Source: Nitrospiraceae bacterium (lineage in GTDB: Bacteria; Nitrospirota; Nitrospiria; Nitrospirales; Nitrospiraceae). From it: a stretch of DNA of 45,931 nt. Location: contig JBGPVY010000001.1 of assembly GCA_041491905.1 (NCBI GenBank), forward strand, positions 1-45,931, given 5' to 3'. The notes beneath the pieces were generated by a model. It searched no databases, was not told the origin of the DNA, and worked only from the letters and a program-made list of their open reading frames with translations. This document shows positions 29,055-44,294 of this stretch, piece by piece (within the stretch, counting starts at the first letter, position 1; every line of letters starts with the position of its first letter). Made by a program: the position numbers and the translations under genes.

Positions 29055-29072
29055 GAGCAGTTTTGAACAGAT
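29055..29072 (+). promoter_or_regulatory. Stress-promoter element copy 11 (GAGCAGTTTTGAACAGAT), reads toward 29145
   Basis: ATAAAT at 29091-29096. AATTCTTC lies 14 nt upstream. Confidence 0.6.
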
Positions 29073-29144
29073 TGCAGTCTGTCTAGTTGGATAAATTTAA
29101 CCTGAATATACACACGAATGGGCGTGTGTCCAAAGGAGGAAACC

Positions 29145-29495
29145 ATGAGATATTCCGCTATGACGATGCTCGTGTTAGTCATGGGAGTTGCCACCGGCTG
29201 CTCAATATCCAGCATAGGGACGGATTTTAGTGGCTTGAAAGGATTGGACGGCGACAAGGTGACGCACATTAACACGAGGAACTACGCGGTCCACCTATTC
29301 TTAACCAAACCGCTCTTCGGAGACGCCACCCTGCAGAACACCGTCAAGAGTTTCACCGAAGAGGCGAAGAAAACCGGTGCGACGAAGGTGAGAATCGTAC
29401 AGTCGGACGAGTGGACCTTGTGGTATCTCCTTCCCCCCTTGACACTGCTTTTCACCCCGGTGACCGTGGACGTCGCAGGAGATGCAATTCAGTAG
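29145..29495 (+). CDS. Hypothetical lipoprotein
   Basis: AAAGGAGGA lies upstream of the ATG at 29145. Lipobox VATGC. Hydrophobic C-terminal segment. Confidence 0.6.
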   Translation: MRYSAMTMLVLVMGVATGCSISSIGTDFSGLKGLDGDKVTHINTRNYAVHLFLTKPLFGDATLQNTVKSFTEEAKKTGATKVRIVQSDEWTLWYLLPPLTLLFTPVTVDVAGDAIQ

Positions 29496-29644: not shown

Positions 29645-30844
29645 ATGGAGATCGACGACGTGAGCCAAGCGAAGTCAAATCGGTGGGTCGTGGATCCGGG
29701 GGTCTGGCCCCCGGTGACGTCCGCTCATCGTATCCTGCGGTCCAATGCCCATGCTCTCCGCACGGAGTACGTGGAAACTGCAAGGCTCGAATCACTTCTG
29801 AAAACCTCGCCATTTAACTTCCTGGGTATCGTCCGTCATGACCGGAGTCCCAGGGAGCCTAGAGGCTTAGATGCCTGTCCGGTTGTCTTCCTCGATTTGC
29901 CGCAATTCAACGGGCCTCCGTTGGCCGAGGTGTGGACGAGCACCTTGGCGGTTACCTATCACCAGGCCGGGGAAATCCACTGCGCAATGAACGATGAGGT
30001 GCTCTTTGGCGCGTTGCAATTGGAAGAAAGCCGGGGCACGCTGCTGGATATCATGACCTACAACGCCTATCGACGCCTGCTCGTCCAGGCTCGTGCCCTG
30101 GGCTACCCTCATCTGTTGCGGGTGTGGAATTACTTCCCCCAGATCAACCGTGAATCCGATGGGCTGGAACGGTACCAGCGCTTTTGCGCCGGCCGATACC
30201 AGGCTCTGGCCGAGAACCTTTCGAACTTCCCTCGAACCCTGCCTGCGGGGACTGCCGTTGGGACGATGTCTGGCCCGCTGAAAATCCATTTCCTGGCGGC
30301 TAGGCATCCTGGAACGCATATCGAGAATCCCCGGCAGGTGAGCGCGTACGAGTATCCTTCTGTCTATGGTCCGCGCAGCCCGTCGTTCGCGAGAGCCACC
30401 CTGCGGCCATCCATCTCCGGATCCCACCTGCTCATCGCCGGTACGGCGAGCGTGGTCGGTCATGTGAGTGAGCACATCGGCGAGCCGCATAAACAGACCC
30501 TGGAAATCATCCACAACCTGAATGTTCTGATCACACATACTGAGCAGCTCCACGGGATCACTCGTGGACAGTGGCATGGGCAGGCCCTCTTCAAGATCTA
30601 TATTCGACACCCGGAACACTTCGCGACGGTCCGCGACATTCTCAAGGAGCAGCTGCCTTCCCATACTCAGGTGCTCTACCTTCAAGGAGAGATGTGCCGC
30701 AGCGAGTTATTACTTGAGGTCGAAGGCATCCTGAGCCAAGAAAAGACCATTGACGTGAGACAAACGCTGTCGCCACCCCCTGTTCGTCTCCAACAACCTG
30801 CGGCATTCCACCAAGCGCAGCCGGGTAGCTTCAAGACCGTGTAG
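29645..30844 (+). CDS. FkbO/Hyg5/XanB2-family chorismatase (hydroxybenzoate-forming)
   Basis: LLRVWNYFPQINRESDGLERYQRFCAGRYQAL...IENPRQVSAYEYPSVYGPRSPSFARAT...LLIAGTASVVGHVSEHIGEPHKQTLEII matches the family signature. The start is uncertain. Confidence 0.75.
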   Translation: MEIDDVSQAKSNRWVVDPGVWPPVTSAHRILRSNAHALRTEYVETARLESLLKTSPFNFLGIVRHDRSPREPRGLDACPVVFLDLPQFNGPPLAEVWTSTLAVTYHQAGEIHCAMNDEVLFGALQLEESRGTLLDIMTYNAYRRLLVQARALGYPHLLRVWNYFPQINRESDGLERYQRFCAGRYQALAENLSNFPRTLPAGTAVGTMSGPLKIHFLAARHPGTHIENPRQVSAYEYPSVYGPRSPSFARATLRPSISGSHLLIAGTASVVGHVSEHIGEPHKQTLEIIHNLNVLITHTEQLHGITRGQWHGQALFKIYIRHPEHFATVRDILKEQLPSHTQVLYLQGEMCRSELLLEVEGILSQEKTIDVRQTLSPPPVRLQQPAAFHQAQPGSFKTV

Positions 30845-30905
30845 GCACCGGGCTCCGTCCCAACTACTGCCTGTGTTTCTGGATTGACTTCAACATCGAG
30901 ATCAC

Positions 30906-31748
30906 ATGCGTCCACATACTCCCATGCCATGGCACTTCACCATCGATGCAGACTGGGTACCTGGGTCCGAGATCGGGCTGGAAGGCTTGCTGGATTTCAG
31001 TGATCGATGGAAGCTCAAGGCCACGATTTTTGTTGCCGGGCGGTTTGCGGAGACCTATCCGGATCTGATCAGAGATTGTCGGCGGCGAGGGCACGAACTC
31101 GGCACGCATGGGTGGGAGCACGGTGGCCTCGAGAAAGACGAGGATTTCAGGTCAGCCAACTATGACCAGCAGCGAGCATGGATCCGGCTGGCCACGGAGG
31201 CCGTGGAGAAAGCCTCAGGGGTTCGCCCCGTCGTCTTCCGCGCACCGAGCTTGTGGATCAGCGAAACGACCTTGCGCGCGCTCGAAGATGAGGGATACCG
31301 CTACGATTCATCTGTTCCGGCGCGGCGATTTGATTGCGGCTTTGGCCGGGTGCACTACCTGAAATACTTTCGTGCGCCGAGCGAACCGTACCGCCTCTCG
31401 TCATCCCACCTGCGCCTGCCGGGACACAGCTCGCTCATCGAGATGGCCCCCTCCGCGTTTCTGTTCCCCATCAACATGGCTACACTCCGGGTACTCGGCC
31501 TGCCGGTGATGAAGTGGATGGTACGCCGGATCTCTCGGCGTGCCTCGCGGCTGGTGTTCTATTGCCACCCGCACGAATTTGTGCATGCCCATCGGCAATC
31601 CTTCCCGCGCAATATGTCCAAATGGAATATGCAGGGCATGACACCGGAAAATATCTCCCTCCTTGACGGATTTGTTGAACACATGATGCGGCAAGGATAT
31701 TCTCCTACTCTTTTTGCAAACTCGTTTAGTCATGCGTTTGCTTCATAG
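30906..31748 (+). CDS. Polysaccharide deacetylase (NodB-homology / CE4) family protein
   Basis: KATIFVAGRFAETYPDLIRDCRRRGHELGTHGWEHG; ...VFRAPSLWISETTLRALEDEGYRYDSS. Confidence 0.75.
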   Translation: MRPHTPMPWHFTIDADWVPGSEIGLEGLLDFSDRWKLKATIFVAGRFAETYPDLIRDCRRRGHELGTHGWEHGGLEKDEDFRSANYDQQRAWIRLATEAVEKASGVRPVVFRAPSLWISETTLRALEDEGYRYDSSVPARRFDCGFGRVHYLKYFRAPSEPYRLSSSHLRLPGHSSLIEMAPSAFLFPINMATLRVLGLPVMKWMVRRISRRASRLVFYCHPHEFVHAHRQSFPRNMSKWNMQGMTPENISLLDGFVEHMMRQGYSPTLFANSFSHAFAS

Positions 31749-31885
31749 CATGAAGCGAGCGCCAGTACGCGAATTCCGTCCGCTGCGATCGATGATGTCA
31801 ATGCGCACGCGACTGACCTCGCTGGCAGCCATCGGCGAGACAGTCACAACGCTCACCTCAGACCTTCAATTCATTCGCACATTGT

Positions 31886-31903
31886 GTGCAATTCTGACCA
31901 GTC
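31886..31903 (+). promoter_or_regulatory. Stress-promoter element copy 12, most divergent (GTGCAATTCTGACCAGTC), reads toward 32023
   Basis: CATACT at 31922-31927 at the fixed spacing. Confidence 0.45.
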
Positions 31904-32022
31904 TGAACCCGATCCGAGAGGCATACTGTAGCCATGATCCGCAGTCGTTCATAGGAACTTGCTCCTGCGCTCATGTGCCAAGGCTCGTACAATAAAACGG
32001 GGGATAGAGAAAGGAGTTTCTC

Positions 32023-32190
32023 ATGTTGTACTACGCGTTGATGTTCTTGCTGCTCGGCTTTGTGGCGGCCGCTCTGGGTCTGTCAGGAATCGCTGCGGTC
32101 GCGACGCAGATTTCCTGGGTGTTATTCGTGGTTGGAATTGTGCTCCTGATCATTCACGTGGCGAAAGGCCGCACGCCTCGAGTGACCTAG
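32023..32190 (+). CDS. DUF1328 (YtjA-like) small membrane protein, 55 aa
   Basis: AAAGGAG lies 6 nt upstream of the ATG. MLYYALMFLLLGFVAAALGLSGIAAVATQISWVLFVVGIVLLIIHVAKGRTPRVT*. Not in the ORF track. Confidence 0.75.
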   Translation: MLYYALMFLLLGFVAAALGLSGIAAVATQISWVLFVVGIVLLIIHVAKGRTPRVT

Positions 32191-32412
32191 CAGGCTGCGG
32201 AAACCTATTTCGGCACAGCAGAAAATCGAGGGTCGGCACGTCCGGGACAAGACCCCCCCTGCCGGATAGCCGCGCTCGACAGGCAAGACCGGCGGAACAG
32301 GCGAGACACTCAGTCGAGGCTTGGGCCTGTTCAGATGCTCGCGGCTCCCCGAAGCGATGCTCCTCACGAGAACCTCACTCTCGCCAGCCTTATCTCAATC
32401 CCGCAGCGGGAC
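32191..32412 (+). repeat. Composite copy of the repeat family, starting at the base after the DUF1328 stop codon
   Basis: 32191-32253 matches 18527-18593. 32258-32312 matches the reverse complement of 3590-3645. Possible degenerate right end aatCCCGCAGCggg at about 32398. Confidence 0.4.
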
Positions 32413-32444
32413 CACTGCCTCTGTAACGTGAGGGAGATTGTGTA

Positions 32445-33602
32445 ATGATGGTAACTCTTGGCGCACACGATTCCGTGCGCGCCCACCGGTTCTCCATTTG
32501 GAGCAACGTGAAAATCGCGACGAGTGGAGTGGTCTTCGTATTCTGTCTCGTCTTGGGGATCGTGTCGGCAACGATCGCGGTTGACGATTCCTACATCGCC
32601 GGCTACGCCGCCGCTGTCCTCAGACACGAATTTGACGCAACCAAGGCGTCTCTGCAGGTGCAGGGGGGGGTCGTGATTGTTGATGCCGGGTCGCTCGGTA
32701 CGGTCGACCGAACAAAAGTCACGACAGCGTTGGAAAGCATTCCCGGTGTTGTGCGAGTGGAGATCCGAGAAGGCCAGGCTCACGCCGATGTCCGTGAATC
32801 GCCGCCCATTCAGCAAGAACCCACCAAGCCCGAGTCAAAATTCCTTCCTCGCGGTCTCCTCGTAGCTCCTTTCCATGCCGACCCGCGCTGGCCTCATTTC
32901 TCCGGCGCCTACCGTCACGTCACGTACGGCCAAGAGCCGACGAAGACCTTCGCGGCCAATTTCGGTGAAACGTTCGCGCTCTACCGCAATGCGGCTCCTC
33001 TTGACGGCCAATGGGAAATCGTCATCCAGGCTGGGGTCTTCAGTACTTTCAATGTGGGGTCCTCATCGATAGACCTCCAGAACGCCGATTATACCGTCGG
33101 GCTTCTCACCAGCTACCGAACCGGCCCCTTCTCCGGTTTCCTCCGTCTGCATCACCAGAGCTCACATCTGGGGGATGAATTCATCCTCAACAGACAGCCT
33201 CCGATTAACAGAATCAATTTGAGCTTTGAAGAACTCGACCTGAAATTGTCCTATGAGCTGGCCTCCTGGTTGCGGATCTATGGCGGCGGCGGGATGCTGG
33301 TGGACCAATACCCGAAGGATCTGAAAGGCGGCACGAGCCAATTTGGGGTTGAACTCACCAGCCCCTGGACCTTGTGGGGCGGCAAGGTTCGTCCGGTGGC
33401 CTATGCAGATTTCCAGGCCAACGCGAGAAGTAATTGGAGGGTCGCCAACTCCGCCATGGCGGGACTTCAATTCGAGAATGCGAGAATCGGAGATCGCAGA
33501 CTACAGGTATTGGCGGAGTATTTCAGCGGCCCCTCGCCCAACGGACAATTTTATAATCAAAATACGGAGTGGATCGGAGTCAGCGTCCACCTGTATTACT
33601 GA
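32445..33602 (+). CDS. BON domain fused to a DUF1207-like outer-membrane domain
   Basis: N-terminal YIAGYAAAVLRHEF...LQVQGGVVIVDAGSLG...IPGVVRVEI (BON). Then FLPRGLLVAPFHADPRWPHFSGAY...HQSSHLGDEF, which matches DUF1207 as I recall it. Confidence 0.7.
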   Translation: MMVTLGAHDSVRAHRFSIWSNVKIATSGVVFVFCLVLGIVSATIAVDDSYIAGYAAAVLRHEFDATKASLQVQGGVVIVDAGSLGTVDRTKVTTALESIPGVVRVEIREGQAHADVRESPPIQQEPTKPESKFLPRGLLVAPFHADPRWPHFSGAYRHVTYGQEPTKTFAANFGETFALYRNAAPLDGQWEIVIQAGVFSTFNVGSSSIDLQNADYTVGLLTSYRTGPFSGFLRLHHQSSHLGDEFILNRQPPINRINLSFEELDLKLSYELASWLRIYGGGGMLVDQYPKDLKGGTSQFGVELTSPWTLWGGKVRPVAYADFQANARSNWRVANSAMAGLQFENARIGDRRLQVLAEYFSGPSPNGQFYNQNTEWIGVSVHLYY

Positions 33603-33803
33603 TCTACCCCCACGTCCGCTTCATCATCTTCGTCACGCCGACTTCACACGCCAATACTCCATCGGCATAGCGCAACATCCTCAGTACGAGGATTGCTCAG
33701 ACCGGCATCAGCACAGACTCCGACGTAAGACGAGGTCACCAGGGCGAGTGTAGCGGGGAGGGTACTGGGCTGAAGTGGGTGATGGCTGTTTCGAAGCGGG
33801 ACC

Positions 33804-34703
33804 TCAGCCGCATTTTATTCTCTGCAGGAGAGCCGCTTCGTGCTCCTCAACCTGGCTTCGGATCCCGCAACTCAGAGGCGCAGGTTGTGCGCATCGTGCC
33901 GACGCGCCCTCCTCAACGCCGTGATACGCGCCCGACAGGCATACGGTCTGTCCAAAGAGCGAGCGGTAGAGTCCGATCGGGTACATGCCTCTGGACATGA
34001 GTTTCCACCCCACCATGCAGGTGATGCGGACGATGTCGAGCACCGGCCGAAAATAACTGGGTCGCGCTCCGGGACGGCGCAGGGCTTCAATGGGAACCGC
34101 CAGGCTTCGATGTCCTGAACGAGTAGCCTCGATCAGAATTTCGCTTTCGAAGACGAAGCTTCTGACTTTTCCATGTTTGATCTTCACACGACTCAACAGT
34201 GATGCGGGATAGACACGAAAGCCTGACTGACTATCTGCAAATGAATAGCCCGCGGCCCAGGAGACCCAGAAATCAGCCACACGGTTTGCGACATAGCGCC
34301 AGAAGGCCGCACGTCGCTGACCTCCACGGCGCGCTCCGATGATCACATGATCTGGATAGAAGGCAGCTTCAGCGAGCAATCGTGGAATGTCTTCCGGCGC
34401 ATGCTGGCCATCGCCGTCCAGAGTCACAACGCCGGAGGATCCAGCTGCCAATGCCTGCTGAAAGCCACGCCACAGGCTGGCGGCCTTCCCGCAGTTCGTG
34501 GAATTTCGCAATAGTGCGACGGGCAATCCAACCAGAGCTTCTGCCGTGCCATCGGTAGACCCATCGTCCACAACGATCACATGCTCGATCTGTCGGATCG
34601 CCCGCGATGCCACGTCCCTAATCGTGGAGGCTTCGTTATAGGCGGGGATCACAACCCAGTACCCGGCCAGGACGTTGACCTCCGAATGTGAATGGGCGTT
34701 CAC
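33804..34703 (-). CDS. Family-2 glycosyltransferase
   Basis: GTG at 34703 overlaps the KR stop (GTGA). VVIPAYNEASTI...VVDDGSTDGT...LDGDGQH. The 5' part of the listed ORF 33804-35117 is rejected because it overlaps the KR gene. Confidence 0.8.
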   Translation of the reverse strand: MNAHSHSEVNVLAGYWVVIPAYNEASTIRDVASRAIRQIEHVIVVDDGSTDGTAEALVGLPVALLRNSTNCGKAASLWRGFQQALAAGSSGVVTLDGDGQHAPEDIPRLLAEAAFYPDHVIIGARRGGQRRAAFWRYVANRVADFWVSWAAGYSFADSQSGFRVYPASLLSRVKIKHGKVRSFVFESEILIEATRSGHRSLAVPIEALRRPGARPSYFRPVLDIVRITCMVGWKLMSRGMYPIGLYRSLFGQTVCLSGAYHGVEEGASARCAQPAPLSCGIRSQVEEHEAALLQRIKCG

Positions 34704-35419
34704 GCTATCCCCCCATTGAGACCGATCACTTGGCCGGAGATATAGTCGGCCTTCTCGGAGGCCAGGAATCCAACTAGGTACGCCACCTCTTGAGGCGTGC
34801 CGGCTCGCTTCATCGGCACCAAAGCCTCGATCTTTTCCGGTTTGCAACTCTGCTCGACCATCCGCGATTCGATAAAGCCCAGCGCAACCACATTGACGGT
34901 CACGCCTCGGGAGGCGACCTCCCGGGCAAGCGATTTGGAGGCGCCGTGGATCCCCGCTTTGGCCGCTGCGTAATTCGTCTGACCTCGATTGCCGAGCTGG
35001 GCCGAGATCGACGAAATCGTGATGATCCGTCCCCACCGAGTGCCGATCATCGGAAGGAGCAACGGCTGAGTCACGTTGAAAAATCCGCCCAGCGAGACAG
35101 CGATCACGTGGCTCCATTGGTCCGCCCGCATGCCCGCCATCGGGGCATCGTCATAGACGCCTGCATTGTTCACGAGCACCTGGATGGGACCGGCTTCCAG
35201 AATCTGCGTCAGGGCCCGTCGAGTGGCCTCGGCATCGCTGACATCGAAGCAGGCTACGCCGGCCGACCCGCCTGTTCCGATGATCTGCTTGGTTACCTCC
35301 TCGGCCGCAGCGCGATTGCGATGCGCATGGACAATGACGTGCAGGCGCTCCTGCGCCAGCTGTCGGCTGATCGCGGCGCCGATTTGACCGCTGCCGCCTG
35401 TGACCAAGGCTCGTTTCAT
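34700..35419 (-). CDS. 3-oxoacyl-ACP reductase (SDR, FabG-like)
   Basis: TGGSGQIGAAI; NNAGV; SSISAQLGNRGQTNYAAAKAG (Ser-Tyr-Lys). Confidence 0.9.
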   Translation of the reverse strand: MKRALVTGGSGQIGAAISRQLAQERLHVIVHAHRNRAAAEEVTKQIIGTGGSAGVACFDVSDAEATRRALTQILEAGPIQVLVNNAGVYDDAPMAGMRADQWSHVIAVSLGGFFNVTQPLLLPMIGTRWGRIITISSISAQLGNRGQTNYAAAKAGIHGASKSLAREVASRGVTVNVVALGFIESRMVEQSCKPEKIEALVPMKRAGTPQEVAYLVGFLASEKADYISGQVIGLNGGIA

Positions 35420-35421
35420 GA

Positions 35422-35865
35422 TTAGTGGTCGGGGTGCTTGAGGAATATGGATGCGCGCCCATCCAGCAACTCTTGTCGCTCAACCGACACTCGAAAGGCA
35501 TAGATGAAGCTGCCGGTCTCGCCGACTAAACGGGTCGCTTGAACCGTCAAGTCTCCCTTCACGTCGTCCAGACGAGCGGCCCGAAGCATCAGATCCTTTA
35601 CGGCTCCCAGATATCCCACGGCGAGTCGACGCGTCTTCCCCTGCTCCAGAAGCCCGACATGCACCGCCATCGCCTGTGCCGCATACTCCAGTCCGCAGAT
35701 CGCCTCCAATTGGTTGTCTCGCCGAAGAGGATTCGTCGCGTCACGATGCGACGCAGTCGTACACGTAATGCTGGTGTCATCCCACCGCTCGACCGTATCC
35801 AACAGGCACATCGCGCCATGATGCGGAATCAATCTGCAAAGAGCAGCTTTGCCGATGATCAGCAT
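35422..35865 (-). CDS. Hotdog-fold dehydratase (APE-cluster type)
   Basis: 147 aa. LIPHHGAMCLLD...EAICGLEYAAQAMAVH. The position between the CLF-like and KR genes matches APE clusters. Confidence 0.65.
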   Translation of the reverse strand: MLIIGKAALCRLIPHHGAMCLLDTVERWDDTSITCTTASHRDATNPLRRDNQLEAICGLEYAAQAMAVHVGLLEQGKTRRLAVGYLGAVKDLMLRAARLDDVKGDLTVQATRLVGETGSFIYAFRVSVERQELLDGRASIFLKHPDH

Positions 35866-36656
35866 GGTATGACCCGGATCAAAAGTTGTTGGTCTTCTAG
35901 ATACTCAAGGCGGACCAGTGTGCCGCACTGCCTCGCGATGGCGGCCAGAAGCGGTAACGACCGTGCGGCTTGATTCCCGCTCCGAAGAGCTTCCAGTCGT
36001 GCATCGTCCATGCTCGTCGATTCCTCAGAGAGGTCATTGGAAAGAGTGAGATCGAGCTGAGCGAGGTTGCGCGGCGCAGGAGTTCGCGTCAACAACAGAG
36101 CGGCTGCGAATCCTCCTCGCAGGGGTCGCGCAGCATAGAGAGGAGGGGGTGGCGGAAGATCATAGGCCACCAGGAGTACAGGCCTATCCTCGATTTGCGT
36201 ATAGGCGGCCGCCTCCAGCAAGGCGGCGCAGAAGGAAGAATCATAACAAGCCAGCACGGTTGACGATTGCTGTGAGCCAGTGCCGATGCCCCAGTAGCCG
36301 GACGCGGCATTATGGACGGAGTGGTGGAACAGCGTGGGCGAAATCAACCGTTGCGGCTCGGCGAGCGCCGTGCAGAGACGATCCAGGACATCGGTTTCGC
36401 CGTCGGAGGACGCGAAGACCGACGCCACCTCGCGCGCATCGGCCTCCGCCTGCTGCATGGCCTCCTGTGCCACATGGACAGCCCAGCGCACCGTCTCGCT
36501 GCTGCGCCTCCGTTCGTTCGGCGGAAGCACGCTTGCGCTCGGCTCCGGCGGGGCGGCTTCATACGAAGGGCTCTCGCCTCCCAGCACGGCCCGGCTTCCC
36601 GCCCAACCTGCGAGCCCCGGTCCCAACGTGCCGATCCCATTTACATACAATGTCAT
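35859..36656 (-). CDS. Beta-ketoacyl synthase-like protein lacking the full KS fold (chain-length-factor-like)
   Basis: ATGA overlap with the KS gene. GIGTLGPGLAGW...FHHSVHNAASGYWGI... Shortened to 265 aa. Confidence 0.7.
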   Translation of the reverse strand: MTLYVNGIGTLGPGLAGWAGSRAVLGGESPSYEAAPPEPSASVLPPNERRRSSETVRWAVHVAQEAMQQAEADAREVASVFASSDGETDVLDRLCTALAEPQRLISPTLFHHSVHNAASGYWGIGTGSQQSSTVLACYDSSFCAALLEAAAYTQIEDRPVLLVAYDLPPPPPLYAARPLRGGFAAALLLTRTPAPRNLAQLDLTLSNDLSEESTSMDDARLEALRSGNQAARSLPLLAAIARQCGTLVRLEYLEDQQLLIRVIPC

Positions 36657-38020
36657 CAGACTGTCCCGAAAATCAGGCTGCAGTTATTACCGCCAAACCC
36701 AAAGCTATTGCTCAACACCCGCCGAACCGGCTGCTCCCGATTCTCCAACAGCACGTGACCGCTCAAGCTGGGATCGATTCGAGTCGTGTTCAGTGTCCCG
36801 GGAACAAAACTGCGCGTGAGACACAACGCGGCAATCACCGCTCCCGTGACTCCCGCTCCCCCTAATGTATGTCCCGTCCACCCTTTGGTCGAGCTGCAGG
36901 GGGTCGAGGGACCAAACACCGAGTGGACAGCTTTATCTTCAATGCTGTCGTTCGCCCTGGTCGCGGTGCCGTGCAGATGAATGTAGTCGATGTCCCAGGA
37001 GGTGAGCTTACTCCGCAGCAAAGCCGCTTGCATCGCCCTGATCGCCCCGGTCCCTTCCGGATGGGGATGCGACATGTGATACCCGTCGCAACTCTCCCCG
37101 TAGCCCAATAACGCCACCGCCCCAGGCCGACCCGCATGCTCGGATTTTTCCAGTAACGCAAAGCCGGCCGATTCACCCAACGTCAGTCCGTCGCGATTCT
37201 CGTCAGATGGACGGCAGGGACCGGTCGACATCAGCCCCAACGAAGCGAATCCATACAGAATCGTCAGACAAAGACTATCCACGCCGCCGACCACCGCCGC
37301 GTCGCAGAATCCGGCCTCGATGAATCGTGCCGCCGTCGCAAACGCCTTCGCGCTGGACGAACAGGCCGTGGAGATGACCATTGCCGGTCCCCGCAGCCCC
37401 AGGTATGTGCGCACGAAATGCGCGGACGAAAACATGTTATGGGTATATCGATGGGACGTCAGGTACGACGACGGCAAAGCGCCGGTTGCCCGGTCACGGT
37501 GGCAGTACGCATGTTCCGTCTCCAGGATGCCCGATGTGCTCGAACCAAGGATCACCGCCACGCGGTGAGCACCGTAGCGCTCGCGGGCCTTTATTGCGGC
37601 TTGGATGAACCCGTCCTGCTGAAGCCCGAGGAGCGCGAGCCGATTGTTCCGGCAGTCGAACTGCTCCAATTCCGTTGACGCTGAACCACTGCCGACGAAC
37701 ACGTCTTCCACATCATCGACCCGGCCGATGTGGGTGGTGATCCCCACGTCTTCGAAGTCGCAGGGCCGCAACCCTGAACGCCGATTCCGCAATGCCCGAT
37801 AGGTCTCATTGAGGCCTTTCCCCAGCGCTGAGACGATGGTATAGCGGCTGAGAATGAGCGGGGCCATCCCTCGCGCGCCCCCAACATGTGGATTGTGTGA
37901 AACGCGCCAGCAGCCCTGAAGATCGTAAGGGATATCCTCGGCAACTTTATCCGGGCGGTGCCCCTCAGCGAGGTGGGATCCGTCTTCTTCTGTCGGTTCA
38001 TCAACCAGACCCTGTGCCAT
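36656..38020 (-). CDS. Beta-ketoacyl-ACP synthase (KAS I/II-like); alternative start at 37867
   Basis: ISTACSSSAKAF (active-site Cys), HLHGTATRANDSIE, GHTLGGAG, NSFGFGGNN. GGAGGAG lies about 10 nt upstream of the ATG at 38020. Confidence 0.85.
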   Translation of the reverse strand: MAQGLVDEPTEEDGSHLAEGHRPDKVAEDIPYDLQGCWRVSHNPHVGGARGMAPLILSRYTIVSALGKGLNETYRALRNRRSGLRPCDFEDVGITTHIGRVDDVEDVFVGSGSASTELEQFDCRNNRLALLGLQQDGFIQAAIKARERYGAHRVAVILGSSTSGILETEHAYCHRDRATGALPSSYLTSHRYTHNMFSSAHFVRTYLGLRGPAMVISTACSSSAKAFATAARFIEAGFCDAAVVGGVDSLCLTILYGFASLGLMSTGPCRPSDENRDGLTLGESAGFALLEKSEHAGRPGAVALLGYGESCDGYHMSHPHPEGTGAIRAMQAALLRSKLTSWDIDYIHLHGTATRANDSIEDKAVHSVFGPSTPCSSTKGWTGHTLGGAGVTGAVIAALCLTRSFVPGTLNTTRIDPSLSGHVLLENREQPVRRVLSNSFGFGGNNCSLIFGTV

Positions 38021-38089
38021 TGAAGACGCTCTCCTCCACGCTGTCGATCAAGCCTGCGGGGAAGAAAAGTACCAGGTTGCGGAGAGGCC

Positions 38090-38107
38090 AACTGGTCAAA
38101 ATTGCTC
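38090..38107 (-). promoter_or_regulatory. Stress-promoter element copy 6 (GAGCAATTTTGACCAGTT) inside the pigment cluster, overlapping the MMPL stop codon
   Basis: Minus strand reads a-TGA-GCAATTTTGACCAGTT, with the MMPL stop TGA at 38106-38108. TACTTT at 38066-38071 at the fixed spacing. Reads toward the KS gene. Confidence 0.55.
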
Positions 38108-40460
38108 ATTTTTGGAAAGTCTCGGCGGAAAGAGGTGGTTTCTCAGGCGACTCAGCTAGGAACGCGGCAAAGACCAGACAGGCCAGCGATCCCAATGCCG
38201 TGGTTAATCCGATGGCTCGCAGCACAGGGATCTGTGAGACGGCCAGCACTCCGAATACCAAGATCGTGGTCGTGCTGCATACGACCAGGCCATAGACGGT
38301 GCGTCCTCGCTCCGCCGGGGTCCCATGTCTTCGGTTGAAGAACAAGGCATAGTCCAACCCGAGGCCAATGACCAGAAGGAAAGACGCTAGGTGGAACAGC
38401 GAAAACCGTTCACCTAGTGCGTGCAGCAAGGCAGCCACAACCACAATGGCGCTTCCGATTGGAAGCATCACTCGCAGGACGGTGACGGGAGCGCGGAGCC
38501 CGACAAGCAGCACGAGACCGATAGACAGGACCCCCCAGCCCAAGAGTCGCAGCGTCTCATCCCGGTACACGCTGACCATTCGGTTTGATTCTTCCTTCAG
38601 ATCCAAATAGGTAATCTGGAGTTCACCCCACGGCGTCAGAAGCTCCCGGAACTTCTGTCTGTCAGTGACGCCACGCAACGGCACGACCGCAGCCCAGCGT
38701 CCCTCATGCATAAACAACAGCGAGTCCAGTTTGAGCCCCAGCGCCGTCCCGCGGAACGTCTGGATGTCGACCGGCTCCTGCGTCCTGGCTTTCCCTGCTG
38801 CGTCCAGGAATGGCTGAAACAGGCTGGGCTTGAAAGGCAAGCCCTTCATGGCTGATGTGAGATTCCGCTCCAAGGTTTCGCGATCAGGCAACGATGCCTG
38901 GTGCGCCTGTTGCGTCTTGCGGCTGGGCAGATAGCGAGCAGCGAGATCGTATCCTACCAGTTCCCCTTTTCTCATGAGTGGGTCCAACGCCAGCGCCAAC
39001 GCTTCACTCCGTTGGAGGGCCTCTTCTTCGCTTGAGCTCTCCACCACGATGAGGTCCCGGACATCCGGCACCCCGAGTTCATTGCGAAGGGCTTGATCCC
39101 GCTCTTTCTTCTCAGTCGAGATCGGGCTCAGATTGGCAATGTCCTGCTCCCACAGCGGCGTATCCGACCAGATGAAGGAGCCGATGGCAAGGACCACTGC
39201 CAGCGGGACTACAAGTCGTGCCCTTGTCAGCGCATCGACCCACTGTGCGACATGCAGCCCTTCGCGTCTTGTGTGAAATCCTATGGGTACGACGTAGGGA
39301 AGAACCCAACGGGTCACGCATGCGGCCGTGAACAAGCCGACCATCGCGAACAGCCCCAGTTGCGACAGGCCAGGGAACCCGCTCAGGAGTAATGCAGAGA
39401 ACCCAAGAGCCGTCGCCACGACTCCGAGGCGCATCGTCGGCCAGATCTCTTTCATCACGGTCGGCGCCCGGCTCTCCTTGGTGAGATGGCTGAAAAGATG
39501 GATGGGATAATCGTCCACGACGCCTAGCAACGTAATTCCAAACGCCAAGGTCATGCCGTGAATGAACCCGAACACAAGACCCACGGCTACGATCCCGGCC
39601 AGGATCGCGCTCGTCAAGGGAAGGAGGCTGAGAGCAAGAATAGAGATGGAGCCATAGCTGACGAAGAGAAACGTTGTGACCAGCAACGTCGCGCACAAGG
39701 ACAACCGCCACACATCATCTTGGATGGTTTGCCGCATCTCAACGGCAATGACGCTGGGTCCCGTCATCACCAACTGAATGGGAGCTGCACCAGTGGAAGT
39801 TCCGGCGACCGGTCTGAAGGCCTCTCTAATTTTCCCTTGCAGTTGTTCCTGGGATTCCATATCAAAACCGGCCGCATGTGTCTCCGCCACGAGCAACGCG
39901 CGCCGCAGGTCCGACGAGAACCACACTCCTTGGTGTCTCGCCGGAGCCGTCCAGGTCATCCAGGTATGAAGGATCTTCATGAACTCGCCGGTGGGATCGC
40001 CCGGGATCAGTTCCTTGACCATAGGTGACAGTGGAGAGGTGAGGTCGCTCAGCCGCAGCTCAAGGGAGTCGCGGAGATGATCTCGACTGAACGTGGACTC
40101 CTGCACGCCTGGACTGAGCACGTACCGATTCTGAAAGAGGCGTTCCCGCTCCTCCTTTGTCCAGGCTTGCTCCCCATTACCGACATATTGGAAGGCACCA
40201 CTTCCGCGCATCCAGGTCGCCAACTGTTTGCTGGCTCCTGCCAGCAGATCGGCATCCTCTCCCTCCAAAGCTATAAGGATGAGCCGCCCAGTCGCGCCTG
40301 TTCGCAGTTCCGTGAGTAGCAGGCGTTCTGTTGGTGTGGCACCCTCCGGCATTAAGCGGGAGAGTTCGGTCTCCACGTGTGCACGCGTGGCCACGAACCA
40401 CGCTGCGAACCCCAGCACCATGCACCAGATCAAAAGTGTGACCCAGGATCTTCTCGTCAC
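38106..40460 (-). CDS. MMPL/RND-superfamily exporter
   Basis: 784 aa. Two blocks of 5-6 TM helices separated by large periplasmic loops. Typical APE/xanthomonadin exporter position. Confidence 0.8.
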   Translation of the reverse strand: MTRRSWVTLLIWCMVLGFAAWFVATRAHVETELSRLMPEGATPTERLLLTELRTGATGRLILIALEGEDADLLAGASKQLATWMRGSGAFQYVGNGEQAWTKEERERLFQNRYVLSPGVQESTFSRDHLRDSLELRLSDLTSPLSPMVKELIPGDPTGEFMKILHTWMTWTAPARHQGVWFSSDLRRALLVAETHAAGFDMESQEQLQGKIREAFRPVAGTSTGAAPIQLVMTGPSVIAVEMRQTIQDDVWRLSLCATLLVTTFLFVSYGSISILALSLLPLTSAILAGIVAVGLVFGFIHGMTLAFGITLLGVVDDYPIHLFSHLTKESRAPTVMKEIWPTMRLGVVATALGFSALLLSGFPGLSQLGLFAMVGLFTAACVTRWVLPYVVPIGFHTRREGLHVAQWVDALTRARLVVPLAVVLAIGSFIWSDTPLWEQDIANLSPISTEKKERDQALRNELGVPDVRDLIVVESSSEEEALQRSEALALALDPLMRKGELVGYDLAARYLPSRKTQQAHQASLPDRETLERNLTSAMKGLPFKPSLFQPFLDAAGKARTQEPVDIQTFRGTALGLKLDSLLFMHEGRWAAVVPLRGVTDRQKFRELLTPWGELQITYLDLKEESNRMVSVYRDETLRLLGWGVLSIGLVLLVGLRAPVTVLRVMLPIGSAIVVVAALLHALGERFSLFHLASFLLVIGLGLDYALFFNRRHGTPAERGRTVYGLVVCSTTTILVFGVLAVSQIPVLRAIGLTTALGSLACLVFAAFLAESPEKPPLSAETFQK

Positions 40461-41107
40461 TGCGCGCCCGTTGTGATGACCATGACAGACCGATCTCCGT
40501 CTGGGGCTTTGATTTCAATGCTACCGACGTGTTCCCTTTCTCCGGAGATCCGTATGGACTCCACCAGTTCCTGCACGGCTTTGTCCAGTGGACGCAGAAT
40601 CAAGACCCATCGTTGTGGCTCACCCTGCAGCGTCACGCTATAGAAACGCTTCAGGGTGATGACATCATTGGCGAGCGTTGACCGAAAGCCCTCTGTAAAT
40701 GCCCGCAGCGCAGGGTAGTCGTGCAATGAAAGGGTCCTGTTCGTATCCTTTGTCTTGCTCTCGAAGAGGACCGTATCGCCCTCAACGAGGTAGCGTTCGT
40801 CATGAGGAGCGGTGATATGTTTCTCGAGCCCCGTCGGAGGAGTGAAACGCAAGATGCCTTGGGTCTTCAACGGTTGGGTGAGCAGGTTCGAAAATGCGGT
40901 CTCTTCAAACCGTACTTCCGCTTGCCGGTTCTTGGCCAGGCTCTCAATGAGCTGTTCCACATTCCAGCCAGTTGATCCTGCCTCGCGCACAGACTGTGGC
41001 GACGTCTGGGCCAGAGACATCGGCGCAGGACCCGGCAAGAACAACCAGATGAGGAACAGGGCTGGCAGTCTCAACAGCCAGCTACCGTTGCTCTTCCCAA
41101 AAGTCAT
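40457..41107 (-). CDS. LolA-like outer-membrane lipoprotein carrier family protein
   Basis: Signal peptide. ..FEETAFSNLLTQPLKTQGILRFTPPTGLEKHI... 4-nt overlap with the MMPL start. Confidence 0.6.
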   Translation of the reverse strand: MTFGKSNGSWLLRLPALFLIWLFLPGPAPMSLAQTSPQSVREAGSTGWNVEQLIESLAKNRQAEVRFEETAFSNLLTQPLKTQGILRFTPPTGLEKHITAPHDERYLVEGDTVLFESKTKDTNRTLSLHDYPALRAFTEGFRSTLANDVITLKRFYSVTLQGEPQRWVLILRPLDKAVQELVESIRISGEREHVGSIEIKAPDGDRSVMVITTGAQ

Positions 41108-41978
41108 AAAAGTTGAACCAGTTGTCGGCCGCCAGGCGGCAGTGGTGTTCTAGGCGGTCGGCGTAGCGCTGGGTCCATTGCTGGACCTCCTGGTCTCGAT
41201 GCTGTCGGTCGATCGTGATCTCCTCGGCGAACAACTCGAAATGGACCTTGTAGCGGTTGCCTCCGCGGTAGAGCCCGAAGAAGAGAATGACCGGCACCTT
41301 TAAGATGCTCGCGAGCCACATGGTTCCGGCAGGGAATCGTGCAAGCTTGCCGAAAAACGTGCAGGGCGTGGCCTGATCCTGCTTCAGGAGACGATCCGCG
41401 AGAATGCCCACCACCCCTCCGCGGTCCAGACATTCCTTGACTCGCAGCATCGTGTTCGGCGAGCCAGTCCGTATCACCGCGTCGGCGACCGCAGGATTCA
41501 AGTCACGGAAGAGGTCACGGATCATCGGTGTATTCTGCTCGTACATCAGGACCTTGATTTCGACATCCCGCTGGGCCAGCCCGATGGCACGCACGATCTC
41601 GAAGCTCCCCAGATGCGAACCGAGCAGGATACATCCTTGGCCACGAGCCAAGCGGTCCTTGAGCAAGTCGAGTCCCCGTATATCGATGTCGAAGTGGCTG
41701 CATGGTCCGGCTAGAAGATAGACACGATCAAGGAGCGTCGAGGCGAAACAATGATACTGCCTATACAGGTCACGCCGGCTGATCGGGCGTCCCAGCGCTC
41801 GAATCAAGTAGGGTCGGATGGCACGACATGCGTGCCTCGAAAATATTAGGTAATAGGCGCAGATCGGGTAGAGCAAGGCGCGCGCGGCAGGACGTCCGAC
41901 GGATAACGCCATCCAGATCATGAATCGCCCCGCGATTCGACTGCCGCGTTCGCGTTGTCGCAACCACCCTACACTCAC
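41082..41978 (-). CDS. Lysophospholipid / lipid A-type acyltransferase (LpxL/HtrB family)
   Basis: CILLGSHLGSFEI...GGVVGILADR pattern. About 300 aa with an N-terminal TM segment. Confidence 0.75.
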   Translation of the reverse strand: MSVGWLRQRERGSRIAGRFMIWMALSVGRPAARALLYPICAYYLIFSRHACRAIRPYLIRALGRPISRRDLYRQYHCFASTLLDRVYLLAGPCSHFDIDIRGLDLLKDRLARGQGCILLGSHLGSFEIVRAIGLAQRDVEIKVLMYEQNTPMIRDLFRDLNPAVADAVIRTGSPNTMLRVKECLDRGGVVGILADRLLKQDQATPCTFFGKLARFPAGTMWLASILKVPVILFFGLYRGGNRYKVHFELFAEEITIDRQHRDQEVQQWTQRYADRLEHHCRLAADNWFNFYDFWEEQR

Positions 41979-42301
41979 ACGTCACCCGTGGAATCATCGG
42001 CGACGATGCGATAGCGCAGGCAGCCGCTCGCAATGAGTCGAGACCCGGTGGTGCATGTGAACTCCGTTGCCCCGTCGCCCTGTTGCTCCAAGTTGATAGT
42101 GAGAGGCTCTCCCGGGTTCAGAGGTGACATGAACTTCGCCGACGGCATGCCCACAAACTCGATGTTCACTTTGGCCATTTCGCGAATGGCGTTCATGATT
42201 TCTCCCAGCATCACAACGCCAGGGACCACAGGATAGCCGGGAAAGTGCCCAGCTAATGATGGATGGTCCGCACCGATTGTGACAATGCGCTCAGGTCCCA
42301 T
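41975..42301 (-). CDS. FabZ/hotdog-like dehydratase (108 aa)
   Basis: Start MGPERIV at 42301. HPSLAGHFPGYPVVPGVVMLGEI. The upstream part of the listed ORF overlaps the ligase gene and is rejected. Confidence 0.7.
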   Translation of the reverse strand: MGPERIVTIGADHPSLAGHFPGYPVVPGVVMLGEIMNAIREMAKVNIEFVGMPSAKFMSPLNPGEPLTINLEQQGDGATEFTCTTGSRLIASGCLRYRIVADDSTGDV

Positions 42302-43637
42302 GCCGCTCCTCTTTGTGAAGCTCTTGCAGCAGTCCGAGCAAGGCCTCTCTCGTGAGTTTGCCGGTCTCGTTACGGGGAAGGTGGGGAACCAGGTGAAGCG
42401 GTCGGGGGAGAAACACAGGATCAATGACTGTTCGAAGCGCCGACAGAATGTGCTCGGCAGCCTTTCCAGGCGCAACAGCGAAAGCGATCAGACGTGTCAC
42501 TGAGGTTTCCGTTTCATCCGGGAGGAAGAACGCTCCATCCTGCACACCCTCGATCTCGTTCAGTTTCTGGTTCAGGTCACTCAACGAACCCCGGTGCCCA
42601 CCGATGTTCACCAGATCCGTGCCGCGTCCATGCAACACGAACCGATGCGGCCCTTGCAGCGACACCAGATCGGGGAAAGGGATCGGCTCACGCAAGTAGG
42701 GGGCTTGCAGGGAACACCCGGCTGATTCCTGATGCAGCGTAATACCATCCAACACGTGCCAGGTGTTCTCGGCGACAGTCCGCCTTGTCGCGAGACTCCC
42801 GGCCTCCGTGAACCCGTACACCTCATAGACTCTGGTTTGGAATAGGGTCTCGGCTTGTTTCGCCAACGAGCTGGGAAGAGGCGCGGTCGCAGAGAGAACG
42901 CACTCCACGTGAGGCAGCCGCGAGCGAGCGGTGACACAAGCCCGGATATGCAAGGGCGTGGTGACAAGCATGCGCGGTGATGGCACGTCCGCCAACACTA
43001 ACCGTACATCTTCAGGGAACAGTGGCCGTCCCACATGGAACGCCATCCCATGTTGAATGGGAAGCATCATGGAGGCTTCGAGCCCGTACATGTGCTGGTG
43101 AGGAACTGTCGCCACCACGGTCATCTGACCGGAAGTCTTGAGCCCCAGCCGGGCTCCCGTGCTCCGAGCGACTGCGACTAGGGAGCCCCAGGTTTTTGAA
43201 TGTGGATGAGGGCGCCCCGTGCTGCCTGACGTAAAGGCCACTACGGCCGGGTGGTCAATGGGGATCTGGGGAACCTTTGCCGTATCGGTCGGACTCCCTG
43301 TACCCTTTGGGATCTGATAGGAGGGAAGTGGTTCAACTTGTTCAGTGCCATTTACCAGGCAATAGCTGCTGCCATATTCTCGAGCTAACTGGGCCAAGGC
43401 ACCCGGCGCGCGACTCGGAGGAAGCAGCGTGGTCTGTCCTCGTACCAATGCAGCGGCAAACCCGACCAGAAACCGATAGCGGTCATCAGCCAGGTTAATG
43501 ACCGTGGGTTTTTCAGGAAGCAGGTCAGCCAGGGCTCCCACATCTGAAAGAAAGTGGCCATAGGTAATCGAGAGACCGTTCTCCCAGGCCAACACTCTGT
43601 CAGCGTGGTAGGGGCCGAGCAACGCGGCGGTGTTCAT
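42291..43637 (-). CDS. AMP-dependent synthetase/ligase (aryl-acid activating, XanA2-like position)
   Basis: AFTSGSTGRPHPHSKTW (AMP-binding core). YGFTEAG; GKLTRE near the C-terminus. Confidence 0.85.
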   Translation of the reverse strand: MNTAALLGPYHADRVLAWENGLSITYGHFLSDVGALADLLPEKPTVINLADDRYRFLVGFAAALVRGQTTLLPPSRAPGALAQLAREYGSSYCLVNGTEQVEPLPSYQIPKGTGSPTDTAKVPQIPIDHPAVVAFTSGSTGRPHPHSKTWGSLVAVARSTGARLGLKTSGQMTVVATVPHQHMYGLEASMMLPIQHGMAFHVGRPLFPEDVRLVLADVPSPRMLVTTPLHIRACVTARSRLPHVECVLSATAPLPSSLAKQAETLFQTRVYEVYGFTEAGSLATRRTVAENTWHVLDGITLHQESAGCSLQAPYLREPIPFPDLVSLQGPHRFVLHGRGTDLVNIGGHRGSLSDLNQKLNEIEGVQDGAFFLPDETETSVTRLIAFAVAPGKAAEHILSALRTVIDPVFLPRPLHLVPHLPRNETGKLTREALLGLLQELHKEERHGT

Positions 43638-43651
43638 AGAGCCACATGCTG

Positions 43652-43918
43652 CTATTTCGTGCGATGTTTATCGATCGACTGACAGAGCGAACGGAGTGAG
43701 GCGAAGGTGGCGACAGTGTCTGGATCATCGGAACGTATCTGATGCCCATAGAATTGAGAGATCGCGAGAGACAGTTCGAGTGCGTCAATCGAATCAAGGC
43801 CCAAGCCGTCACCGAAGAGAGGTTCCTCCGGCTGAATCTGTGCAGGGTCAACTTTTAGTGTGAGCGTCCGCACAATGAGTTTCGCAACTTCCGCTTCCAG
43901 AGGTGATACATCAGACAC
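43652..43918 (-). CDS. Acyl carrier protein
   Basis: 88 aa. LGLDSIDALEL (phosphopantetheine Ser). Confidence 0.85.
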   Translation of the reverse strand: MSDVSPLEAEVAKLIVRTLTLKVDPAQIQPEEPLFGDGLGLDSIDALELSLAISQFYGHQIRSDDPDTVATFASLRSLCQSIDKHRTK

Positions 43919-44114: not shown

Positions 44115-44294
44115 TTAGTGCTGCTGGTCGTGGAAGCCAGGAGATCCTCGCGGAGCGTCGCTTCATGGCCGTAGAACAGATATTGACACCCGCCGTCGCG
44201 CACGAGTATATTTTCACCCGGAATCAGCATTGTTACGCGTTCACCGCCATTACTGACACAAAACTTTGCCCAGAGTTCTCGGGAGGGTCTGGCC

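Follow-up and report, generated by a model that had tools for sequence, protein, structure and literature searches.

Does a Nitrospira-like bacterium carry a complete set of genes for a xanthomonadin-type pigment, and on which starter unit would such a pigment be built? Aryl-polyene gene clusters are a well-known and very widespread family whose products protect against reactive oxygen, and Nitrospira play a key part in nitrification in soil, sediment and wastewater; to our knowledge, their secondary metabolism has hardly been studied. The question is raised by a stretch of 45,931 nucleotides from a Nitrospiraceae bacterium (contig JBGPVY010000001.1 of GenBank assembly GCA_041491905.1; hereafter the window), in which an original prediction had placed a compact aryl-polyene/xanthomonadin-type cluster with a chorismatase gene.

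The locus very probably encodes an apparently complete xanthomonadin-type aryl-polyene lipid cluster, whose predicted product is a yellow membrane pigment. This reading is preferred because the ketosynthase (KS) and the acyl carrier protein (ACP) pass the cut-offs of the models PRK09185 and PRK09184, because the chorismatase gene is linked to the cluster across three Nitrospirota clades, and because the parts match those of the arcuflavin (arc) cluster of Azoarcus sp. BH72. The predicted class of cluster is borne out by the gene families, by the best PDB matches (ApeO, ApeC and ApeP), by the motifs and by synteny.

Gene content and polyene assembly enzymes

Gene calls were based on a listing of open reading frames (ORFs), Pfam and NCBIfam profile searches and start-codon analysis. 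All 15 genes of the original prediction were found at the positions given there, with significant family matches. Eleven form an arm on the minus strand, whose content and order were confirmed by profile matches to each family, and this is faced by a plus-strand arm. The genes, in the order of transcription of each arm, are as follows.

43652-43918, minus: ACP, counterpart of XanC, arcV and ApeE; PF00550 (PP-binding), PRK09184 106 bits against a cut-off of 70; serine in LGLDSID (LGLDSIDAL)
42291-43637, minus: adenylate-forming, putative aryl-acid ligase, counterpart of XanA2, ArcT and ApeH; PF00501 (E 5e-24) and PF13193; TSGSTG, YGFTEAG and GK motifs
41975-42301, minus: first dehydratase subunit (DH1), hotdog fold, FabZ/ApeI-like; FabA-like domain, E 1.6e-4, score 21.7 against a gathering score of 23; HFPGYPVVPG motif
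41082-41978, minus: LpxL-type acyltransferase of the lysophospholipid/lipid A family, counterpart of ApeD and arcR; PF03279, E 2.5e-13; HLGSFE motif
40457-41107, minus: LolA-like lipid carrier, counterpart of ApeL and arcQ; PF19574 (LolA_3), E 5e-19; flexirubin LolA2, E 1.5e-6
38106-40460, minus: MMPL/RND-family exporter, counterpart of ApeM and arcP; PF03176, E 1.7e-8; HAE3 and HpnN-like matches below cut-off
36656-37867, minus: KS, counterpart of ApeO and arcK; PF00109 and PF02801; PRK09185 505 bits against a cut-off of 407
35859-36656, minus: truncated KS resembling a chain-length factor (CLF), counterpart of ApeC and arcJ; PF13723 (Ketoacyl-synt_2), E 3e-31; active-site cysteine motif absent
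35422-35865, minus: second dehydratase subunit (DH2), hotdog fold, ApeP-like; PF22817, E 6e-4, 19.9 bits against a gathering score of 27
34700-35419, minus: FabG-type 3-oxoacyl-ACP reductase (ketoreductase, KR), counterpart of ApeQ, XanH-FabG3 and arcH; adh_short, E 4e-47; PRK05653.1-5 329 bits against a cut-off of 273
33804-34703, minus: GT2 glycosyltransferase of the lipid-phosphate sugar transferase type, 299 residues, counterpart of ApeJ and arcE; PF00535, E 6e-23
29645-30844, plus: chorismatase of the FkbO/Hyg5/XanB2 family, 399 residues; PF21168, E 2e-36
30906-31748, plus: CE4-family polysaccharide deacetylase, counterpart of arcN; PF01522, E 2.7e-19; TIDAD, HGWEH and RAPS motifs
32023-32190, plus: DUF1328 small membrane protein, 55 residues; NCBIfam PRK13682.1-4 53.8 bits against a cut-off of 52
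32445-33602, plus: DUF1207 protein, 385 residues, with an N-terminal membrane anchor or signal; PF06727, E 8.5e-84

The KS is the most informative of these proteins. Its best PDB match is ApeO of Xenorhabdus (6QSP_A, E 1.4e-72, 248 bits), the Acinetobacter ApeO (7F28_B) is also among the best, and the best match to a fatty-acid FabF reaches only 190 bits. The Cys-His-His triad is kept (Cys220, His350 and His384 in ORF numbering, within TACSSS, HLHGTAT and GHTLGGAG); an exact-sequence look-up of the KS protein matched no record. For the CLF-like protein the only PDB matches were ApeC chains (7F28_A, E 2e-8; 6QSP_B, E 4e-5). The original prediction had named ordinary fatty-acid or lipid A metabolism as the case that would speak against it; this was ruled out by the affinity of the KS/CLF pair, the composition of the cluster and its synteny.

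The KS and its partner are a pair of the ApeO:ApeC type. A dedicated ACP is adjoined by an adenylate-forming ligase, and the LpxL-type acyltransferase, the GT2, the LolA-like protein and the MMPL/RND exporter all score above the Pfam gathering score. The KR, with TGGSGQIG and YAAAK motifs, also matches flexirubin FlxB at 256 bits. DH1 matches FabZ structures in the PDB (E 1e-5) ahead of ApeI (6QSR_A, E 9e-5), and ApeP (6QSR_B, E 0.012) is the sole near-significant match to DH2, whose slot between the CLF and KR genes is kept across the loci compared. Catalytic motifs are intact in the KS, KR, DH1, ligase, ACP, GT2 and CE4 proteins.

The gene set had also been described as minimal. It does contain one KS/CLF pair and one ACP, together with one polysaccharide deacetylase, in agreement with PMC3949708 (Table 1), and profile scans detected no thioesterase, second KS, methyltransferase domain or halogenase among the scanned ORFs of the window. 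Such a set is not unusual, however: it is normal for the xanthomonadin type (PMC3949708), and the Acinetobacter ApeO-ApeC pair alone yields the fully elongated polyene in vitro, ApeR only raising throughput (PMC8358021).

Start-codon analysis upheld the tight packing of the minus-strand arm, most junctions being overlapping or abutting. The gaps measure 14 nucleotides (ACP-ligase) and 2 nucleotides (DH2-KR), and the overlaps 11 (ligase-DH1), 4 (GTGA; DH1-LpxL), 26 (LpxL-LolA), 4 (GTGA; LolA-MMPL), 1 (TGATG; KS-CLF), 7 (CLF-DH2) and 4 nucleotides (GTGA; KR-GT2). Three starts differ from the first in their ORFs. The DH1 ORF spans 41975-42475 and its first start would overlap the ligase gene by 185 nucleotides; since an AGAGGAG ribosome-binding site precedes the ATG at 42301, this is most likely the start, giving 108 residues that begin just ahead of the HFPGYPVVPG catalytic motif. 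The GT2 ORF extends back to 35117, yet the glycosyltransferase domain begins only at residue 155; the start is GTG 34703, which gives the 299 residues and the overlap with the KR gene. The KS ORF runs to 38020, but its alignments to the family models, and to every relative outside the closest clade, begin only at residue 52. Ahead of this point, in codons 1-51 of the ORF, substitutions are spread evenly over the codon positions and gaps occur (e.g. 17/13/11 against the related locus L001), and identity is about 72%, as against about 82% in the adjacent coding sequence. The segment 37872-38145, which lies between the MMPL and KS genes, is hypervariable; in run X43, from a related strain, 235 unrelated bases stand in its place, and a further run (X27) also skips it. 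A lineage-specific 51-residue extension was ruled out on these grounds, and because the stretch behaves as non-coding the KS gene probably starts at ATG 37867 (403 residues), leaving a spacer of 238 nucleotides behind the MMPL gene.

The ACP gene has a GGGAGGA ribosome-binding site ahead of GTG 43918. Promoter and terminator scans returned sites no more frequently than in shuffled sequence, so the operon boundaries are putative. Neither Rfam nor tRNA scans gave a hit anywhere in the window.

The chorismatase and its linkage to the cluster

The alignments of the chorismatase to Hyg5 (5AG3, E 2e-48) and FkbO (4BPS, E 3e-45) span the whole protein. Gly173, Gly240 and Cys327 (Hyg5 numbering) form the signature typical of 3-hydroxybenzoate synthases (CH-Hyg5), and Glu334 is catalytic (PMC7170507). 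At these four positions the window protein has Ala, Gly, Cys and Glu; three of four are thus retained, including the catalytic glutamate. The same pattern is common to all 31 cluster-linked homologues aligned. Apart from the alanine in place of Gly173, the protein differs from the Hyg5 type in its N- and C-terminal extensions (399 against 340 residues); its homology with Hyg5, FkbO and XanB2 is nonetheless full-length, with equivalents of the glutamate, Gly240 and Cys327 kept. The family assignment made earlier is therefore supported by end-to-end alignment and by the conserved catalytic and signature residues, and the enzyme is predicted from its sequence to supply a hydroxybenzoate starter unit. 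A metagenomic protein 99% identical to it carries the JGI name 'chorismate lyase/3-hydroxybenzoate synthase'. A search for annotated XanB2 in a plasmid collection found only actinobacterial FkbO/Hyg5 genes and one Caballeronia gene outside a polyene context.

To examine linkage, all window proteins were compared by tblastn with 80 fetched loci, and clades were counted only from loci with enough flank beyond the GT2 gene. The closest relatives of the KS (84-89% identity) belong to metagenome-assembled genomes of Nitrospira, Nitrospiraceae and other Nitrospirota; they are followed by other Nitrospira (62-69%), Nitrospirales (58-60%), and then Nitrospinota, Burkholderiales, Gallionella, Sulfuricella and Thiodiazotropha. 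Near-identical sequence is present in sediment and soil metagenomes. Wherever enough sequence was available the 11-gene order is collinear, and it recurs in Nitrospirota, Nitrospinota and Proteobacteria. Numbers of loci carrying each gene in the three Nitrospirota clades are given below (halogenase, beside the chorismatase gene; 136-residue lipoprotein, after the GT2 gene).

Clade A (closest; L001, L004-L009), KS identity 84-89%, 7 loci: chorismatase 7, CE4 7, halogenase 0, 136-residue lipoprotein 0, DUF1207 7
Clade B (Nitrospira), KS identity 62-69%, 13 loci: chorismatase 13, CE4 12, halogenase 13, 136-residue lipoprotein 13, DUF1207 0
Clade C (Nitrospirales), KS identity 58-60%, 5 loci: chorismatase 5, CE4 0, halogenase 5, 136-residue lipoprotein 5, DUF1207 0

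The chorismatase gene also lies beside the 11-gene block in Nitrospinota and some Proteobacteria, and the CE4 gene adjoins it in 7/7 clade-A and 12/13 clade-B loci. In a neighbour-joining tree the window KS falls inside clade A and groups with clusters carrying both chorismatase and halogenase. Because a flavin halogenase gene adjoins the chorismatase gene in clades B and C, as arcA does arcB in Azoarcus (PMC3949708, Table 1), the chorismatase is tied to the chemistry of the aryl ring.

The window itself has no halogenase gene: none was present among the scanned ORFs, and tblastn with the halogenases of related loci gave nothing better than E 0.3. A decayed copy in the 1.6 kb upstream of the chorismatase gene was ruled out, as there was no tblastn signal; that segment is occupied by a fragment of a crp gene and by two lipoprotein genes, one broken by two in-frame stops and the other small and intact. 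The absence is a real, lineage-specific difference and the sole unusual point of the cluster. Taken with the loss of the 136-residue lipoprotein and the gain of DUF1207, it amounts to a modest lineage twist.

Other lineages vary in further ways. In clade C, one or two additional halogenase-like genes separate the pump gene from the KS gene. Five Nitrospirales loci (L039, L041, L042, L044 and L062) have three flavin-halogenase-like genes (e.g. L041 6644-8200, 8426-9991 and 15746-17047), two of them paralogues of about 520 residues between the MMPL and KS genes and the third beside the chorismatase gene, and this suggests multiply halogenated products. A second Nitrospira lineage of the 11-gene cluster (L057, L058, L060, L063, L067, L075 and L077; KS 55-58% identical) has no chorismatase or halogenase gene in its flanks, and its KS groups with Burkholderiales in the neighbour-joining tree. 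In three loci from metagenome-assembled genomes labelled Chromatiales USCg or Gammaproteobacteria (L025, L031 and L033), the KS genes (66-69% identical) branch beside the Nitrospira clade of the window, and there are no LolA and MMPL genes between the acyltransferase and KS genes; their placement could reflect horizontal transfer or mis-binning.

Envelope genes and genomic surroundings

The envelope genes are consistent with assembly of a lipid anchor. The best NCBIfam matches of the GT2 are PpgS, AglJ and ArnC, all below cut-off, and its best PDB matches are ArnC (E 3e-11) and dolichol-P-mannose synthase. In Xenorhabdus, aryl-polyene lipids have a glycerol-phosphate-N-acetylgalactosamine backbone with the chromophore esterified to the sugar, and ApeJ has been proposed to attach the sugar to the phosphate (bioRxiv 10.1101/2020.12.19.423268); this role suits a GT2 that, like the one here, belongs to the lipid-phosphate transferase type. 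The PDB matches of the CE4 protein, down to E 1e-12, are polysaccharide, chitin and peptidoglycan deacetylases.

Genes of a stress type had been thought to be inserted between the two arms. The CE4 gene is not such an insertion but a known cluster component, since the Azoarcus arc cluster includes a polysaccharide deacetylase (arcN). The DUF1328 and DUF1207 genes are present, as stated, but are confined to the closest clade. DUF1207 is exclusive to clade A, where all 7 informative loci have it, and fills the slot held in related clusters by the 136-residue lipoprotein and in Azoarcus by an outer-membrane protein. DUF1328 occurs at this position only in L002 and L007 among the loci compared and is probably an unrelated insertion. 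The plus-strand arm was thus described correctly in its four genes but not in the BON domain assigned to the DUF1207 protein, for which there was no Pfam match even at E <= 1. A single-sequence AlphaFold model of this protein has a mean predicted local distance difference test (pLDDT) score of 40.6 and is unusable beyond residues ~48-110, which are modelled as alpha-beta-beta-alpha-beta with pLDDT > 90; the best Foldseek matches were the BON proteins OsmY and DolP, non-significant and with none at E <= 0.001. The model gives at most a weak structural hint of a BON-like module.

Three lipoproteins were noted in or around these clusters.

29118-29495, plus: small predicted lipoprotein, 125 residues, with the MRYSAMTMLVLVMGVATGC lipobox; signal and lipobox read from the translation, no Pfam match

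This gene lies 149 nucleotides upstream of the chorismatase gene and is kept there in 7/7 informative closest loci, and is possibly an accessory gene or merely a conserved neighbour; homologues of 64-66% identity lie about 3 kb beyond the GT2 gene in the second Nitrospira lineage (L058, L067, L075 and L077). The lipoprotein of about 136 residues (MKQMAAAIIFAALLVGGMLGC...), which has no Pfam family, directly follows the GT2 gene in L010 (14013-14423 and 14485-14895) and has homologues, sometimes in two copies, in about 35 loci of Nitrospirota, Nitrospinota and Proteobacteria. Neither the window nor the rest of its clade has this lipoprotein, which is a candidate for an uncharacterised component of these clusters. 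At 28239-28955 (plus) lies a gene for a 238-residue lipoprotein, its signal peptide having an AMQGC lipobox, with in-frame stops after codons 66 and 84; the L004 orthologue (12915-12202, 74% identity) is intact, and the window copy is either a pseudogene or affected by sequencing error.

The cluster was said to be flanked by a crp paralogue.

44295-44948, plus: Crp/Fnr-family regulator, divergent from the ACP operon; cNMP_binding and HTH_Crp_2

The gene is indeed there, with a sigma-70-like site at 44183-44212 that matches at 11/12 positions, but the flank is variable, a crp gene occupying it in only four of the closest loci (L006-L009), and the window contains three further full paralogues. 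From its position and family it is a candidate regulator of the cluster. The four Crp/Fnr paralogues lie within 46 kb (886-1542, minus; 1604-2395, minus; 25155-25889, plus; 44295-44948, plus), accompanied by two crp 3'-end fragments (27878-28125, plus; 18106-18266, minus). Several copies are 75-85% identical at the DNA level, and a segment of 98 nucleotides behind the copy at 25155-25889 recurs at 28989-29086, upstream of the small lipoprotein gene, which points to repeated duplication of regulator-plus-target modules.

Further afield, the stretch 8665-18000 is rich in stress genes and has duplications within it: its two BON-domain genes, at 10765-11340 and at 16939-17670, are 87% identical over 300 nucleotides, and two CsbD-like repeats (11404-11702 and 12891-13189) are 95% identical. 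It holds a ferritin-like gene (8665-9297), a gene with an Fe/Mn superoxide dismutase C-terminal domain (9368-10132) and an M48 peptidase gene (10042-10743); an OmpA-family gene lies at 6526-7059. Two genes adjoin the outer side of the plus-strand arm: one for an MlaC-family lipid-binding protein (26244-27014; weak HpnM match; 83% conserved in L001), which may belong to the same envelope-lipid neighbourhood, and one for an outer-membrane beta-barrel protein (27063-27797).

Proposed pathway, alternatives and known systems

The substrates, product structure, head-group chemistry and physiological role in the following scheme are predictions that draw on the observed families, motifs, synteny and distribution. 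The chorismatase would convert chorismate to 3-hydroxybenzoate, and possibly also to 4-hydroxybenzoate, which the adenylate-forming ligase would load on the dedicated ACP; loading of the starter acid on an ACP by a ligase has been shown for XanA2/XanC and ArcT (PMC6859482, PMC3949708). The KS/CLF heterodimer would extend the starter with malonyl units, the FabG-type KR and the two-subunit hotdog dehydratase acting in each round, and a conjugated polyene should result because no enoyl reductase was found among the scanned ORFs of the window. The LpxL-type acyltransferase and the GT2 would assemble an anchor of glycerolipid, phosphate and hexosamine and join the chromophore to it, on the pattern of the aryl-polyene lipids of Xenorhabdus, and the CE4 enzyme may de-N-acetylate the anchor sugar. 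The LolA-like protein and the MMPL pump would carry the lipid to the outer membrane, where it would quench reactive oxygen and light damage. As the window has no halogenase or methyltransferase gene, a non-halogenated product is predicted. A more detailed evolutionary account is offered only tentatively and is doubtful: a soil and sediment Nitrospira lineage may have remodelled an ancestral halogenated pathway by dropping the halogenase and the 136-residue lipoprotein, gaining the BON-like DUF1207 protein and keeping CE4, so as to make a non-halogenated lipid with a de-N-acetylated, cationic hexosamine; with the cluster set in a stress island rich in Crp/Fnr genes, the pigment would act as an antioxidant of the outer membrane that the nitrite oxidiser could induce.

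Several points weigh against the reading of the locus as a xanthomonadin-type cluster or limit its detail. The pigment is a prediction from the genes. Both dehydratase assignments have sub-threshold scores, though the genes are in canonical positions. The best NCBIfam match of the ligase is a 4-coumarate ligase (TIGR02372), at 100 bits far below its cut-off, and its aryl-acid substrate is a prediction. The chorismatase scores 230.6 bits on TIGR04444, below the cut-off of 325, and because of the alanine at Gly173 the choice between 3-hydroxybenzoate, 4-hydroxybenzoate or both is not callable from sequence, a limitation stated by Schoener et al. (PMC3949708); the XanB2 type is defined by its product (both acids). 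The role of CE4 in de-N-acetylation is a suggestion modelled on the analogous ArnC/ArnD pair. The genome could have genes for a methyltransferase, a halogenase or dialkylresorcinol synthesis outside the window, given that the Azoarcus cluster is split. Finally, contigs from RNA-type soil and sediment libraries cover the cluster evenly at 90-99% identity, intergenic parts included; as the libraries are ambiguous and the contigs unstranded, they are no proof of transcription.

The starter unit is also where the alternatives begin. An aryl polyene of the Escherichia/Vibrio type, primed by 4-hydroxybenzoate in place of a xanthomonadin-like chromophore primed by 3-hydroxybenzoate, would agree with the best solved structures being Ape proteins of Xenorhabdus and Acinetobacter and with the formation of 4-hydroxybenzoate besides 3-hydroxybenzoate by XanB2-type enzymes (PMC3949708); moreover, ArcT accepted several benzoates, and the specificity of the window ligase is only predicted. 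We nevertheless consider it unlikely, as the hallmarks of that type (the second, FabB-like KS ApeR, a second ACP, the thioesterase ApeK, the methyltransferase ApeB, ApeG and ApeN) are not among the scanned ORFs of the window, the parts list and its split fit the Azoarcus/Xanthomonas type, including the chorismatase and deacetylase (PMC3949708), and the KS groups with clusters that have chorismatase and halogenase genes. A hybrid in which the polyene, like that of arcuflavin or flexirubin, forms an ester with a dialkylresorcinol made by dar genes elsewhere in the genome is very unlikely: no DarA- or DarB-like gene is among the scanned ORFs of the 46-kb window and none was noticed in two annotated related loci, although xanthomonadin-like and unlinked dar clusters do coexist in Azoarcus, Dechloromonas, Variovorax and Sideroxydans (PMC3949708).

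The chorismatase might instead mainly supply 4-hydroxybenzoate for methyl-plastoquinone and adjoin the cluster by chance, the minus-strand genes making a non-aryl conjugated or hydroxy fatty-acyl lipid. Nitrospirota do build methyl-plastoquinone from 4-hydroxybenzoate (PMC12998194), XanB2 feeds ubiquinone in Xanthomonas (PMC3949708), and in the Xenorhabdus aryl-polyene lipids the same machinery also produces a second, conjugated fatty acyl chain that is not aryl (bioRxiv 10.1101/2020.12.19.423268). Against this stand the UbiC-like MpqC that Nitrospirota own (PMC12998194), the dedicated aryl-acid-type ligase next to the ACP, and the linkage of the chorismatase to the cluster, accompanied by a halogenase, in Nitrospinota and Proteobacteria as well as in three Nitrospirota clades; these leave the alternative scarcely credible.

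As a xanthomonadin-type cluster the locus is compact and apparently complete, and so offers a concrete target for asking whether pigments of this kind protect nitrite oxidisers from oxidative or light stress. Sister lineages with and without the halogenase provide a natural comparison, and the conserved pairing of GT2 and CE4 genes could help to establish the route by which aryl-polyene lipids obtain their sugar-phosphate anchor. Current understanding is unchanged: the locus adds a further phylum to a known system, and genome mining had already pointed to that phylum, antiSMASH surveys listing aryl-polyene clusters for N. inopinata, N. lenta, N. japonica and one unnamed species (PMC9765116).

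Compared with the ape clusters of E. coli, Xenorhabdus doucetiae and Acinetobacter baumannii (ApeA-R), the window has counterparts of ApeO:ApeC, putatively of ApeI:ApeP, and of ApeQ, ApeH, ApeD, ApeJ, ApeL and ApeM, and the logic of lipid anchoring and export is likely to be similar; it differs in a starter predicted to come from a cluster-encoded chorismatase and in its extra CE4 deacetylase. The pig/xan cluster of Xanthomonas campestris (XanB2, XanA2, XanC and XanH/FabG3; PMC6859482) is alike by description in its type II polyketide synthase-like character, chorismatase-derived starter, dedicated ACP and ATP-dependent ligase, but has about 22 ORFs in seven transcription units, as against 15-16 genes in two arms. 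The single KS with a CLF-like partner is common to the window, Xanthomonas and Lysobacter, and the pigment is one of the outer membrane, as is predicted here. The flavin halogenase and O-methyltransferase that give the xanthomonadin type its brominated, methoxylated ring were not found (tblastn of the window for the former, scanned ORFs for the latter); according to a citation in PMC3949708, Lysobacter enzymogenes makes a non-brominated xanthomonadin-like pigment, which is a precedent for a halogenase-free member.

The closest resemblance is to the arcuflavin genes of Azoarcus sp. BH72, which are divided between two loci (PMC3949708, Table 1). Locus 1 encodes an ACP, a hypothetical protein, an AMP ligase, a dehydratase, an acyltransferase, LolA, an exporter, a second hypothetical protein, a polysaccharide deacetylase and a methyltransferase; locus 2 encodes a KS, a protein with an N-terminal KS domain, a dehydratase, a reductase, two unrelated genes, a glycosyltransferase, an acyltransferase, a MipA-type outer-membrane protein, a XanB2-type chorismatase and a halogenase. 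The window lacks the halogenase (arcA), the methyltransferase (arcM), the second acyltransferase (arcD) and the MipA-type protein (arcC), has no dar genes in view, and has DUF1207 and DUF1328, unlike the arc cluster. The parts list and order are otherwise as in Azoarcus, and the split between the two Azoarcus loci falls at the spacer of 238 nucleotides between the MMPL and KS genes of the window, where the two halves are fused into one 14.8-kb cluster in a host of the phylum Nitrospirota.

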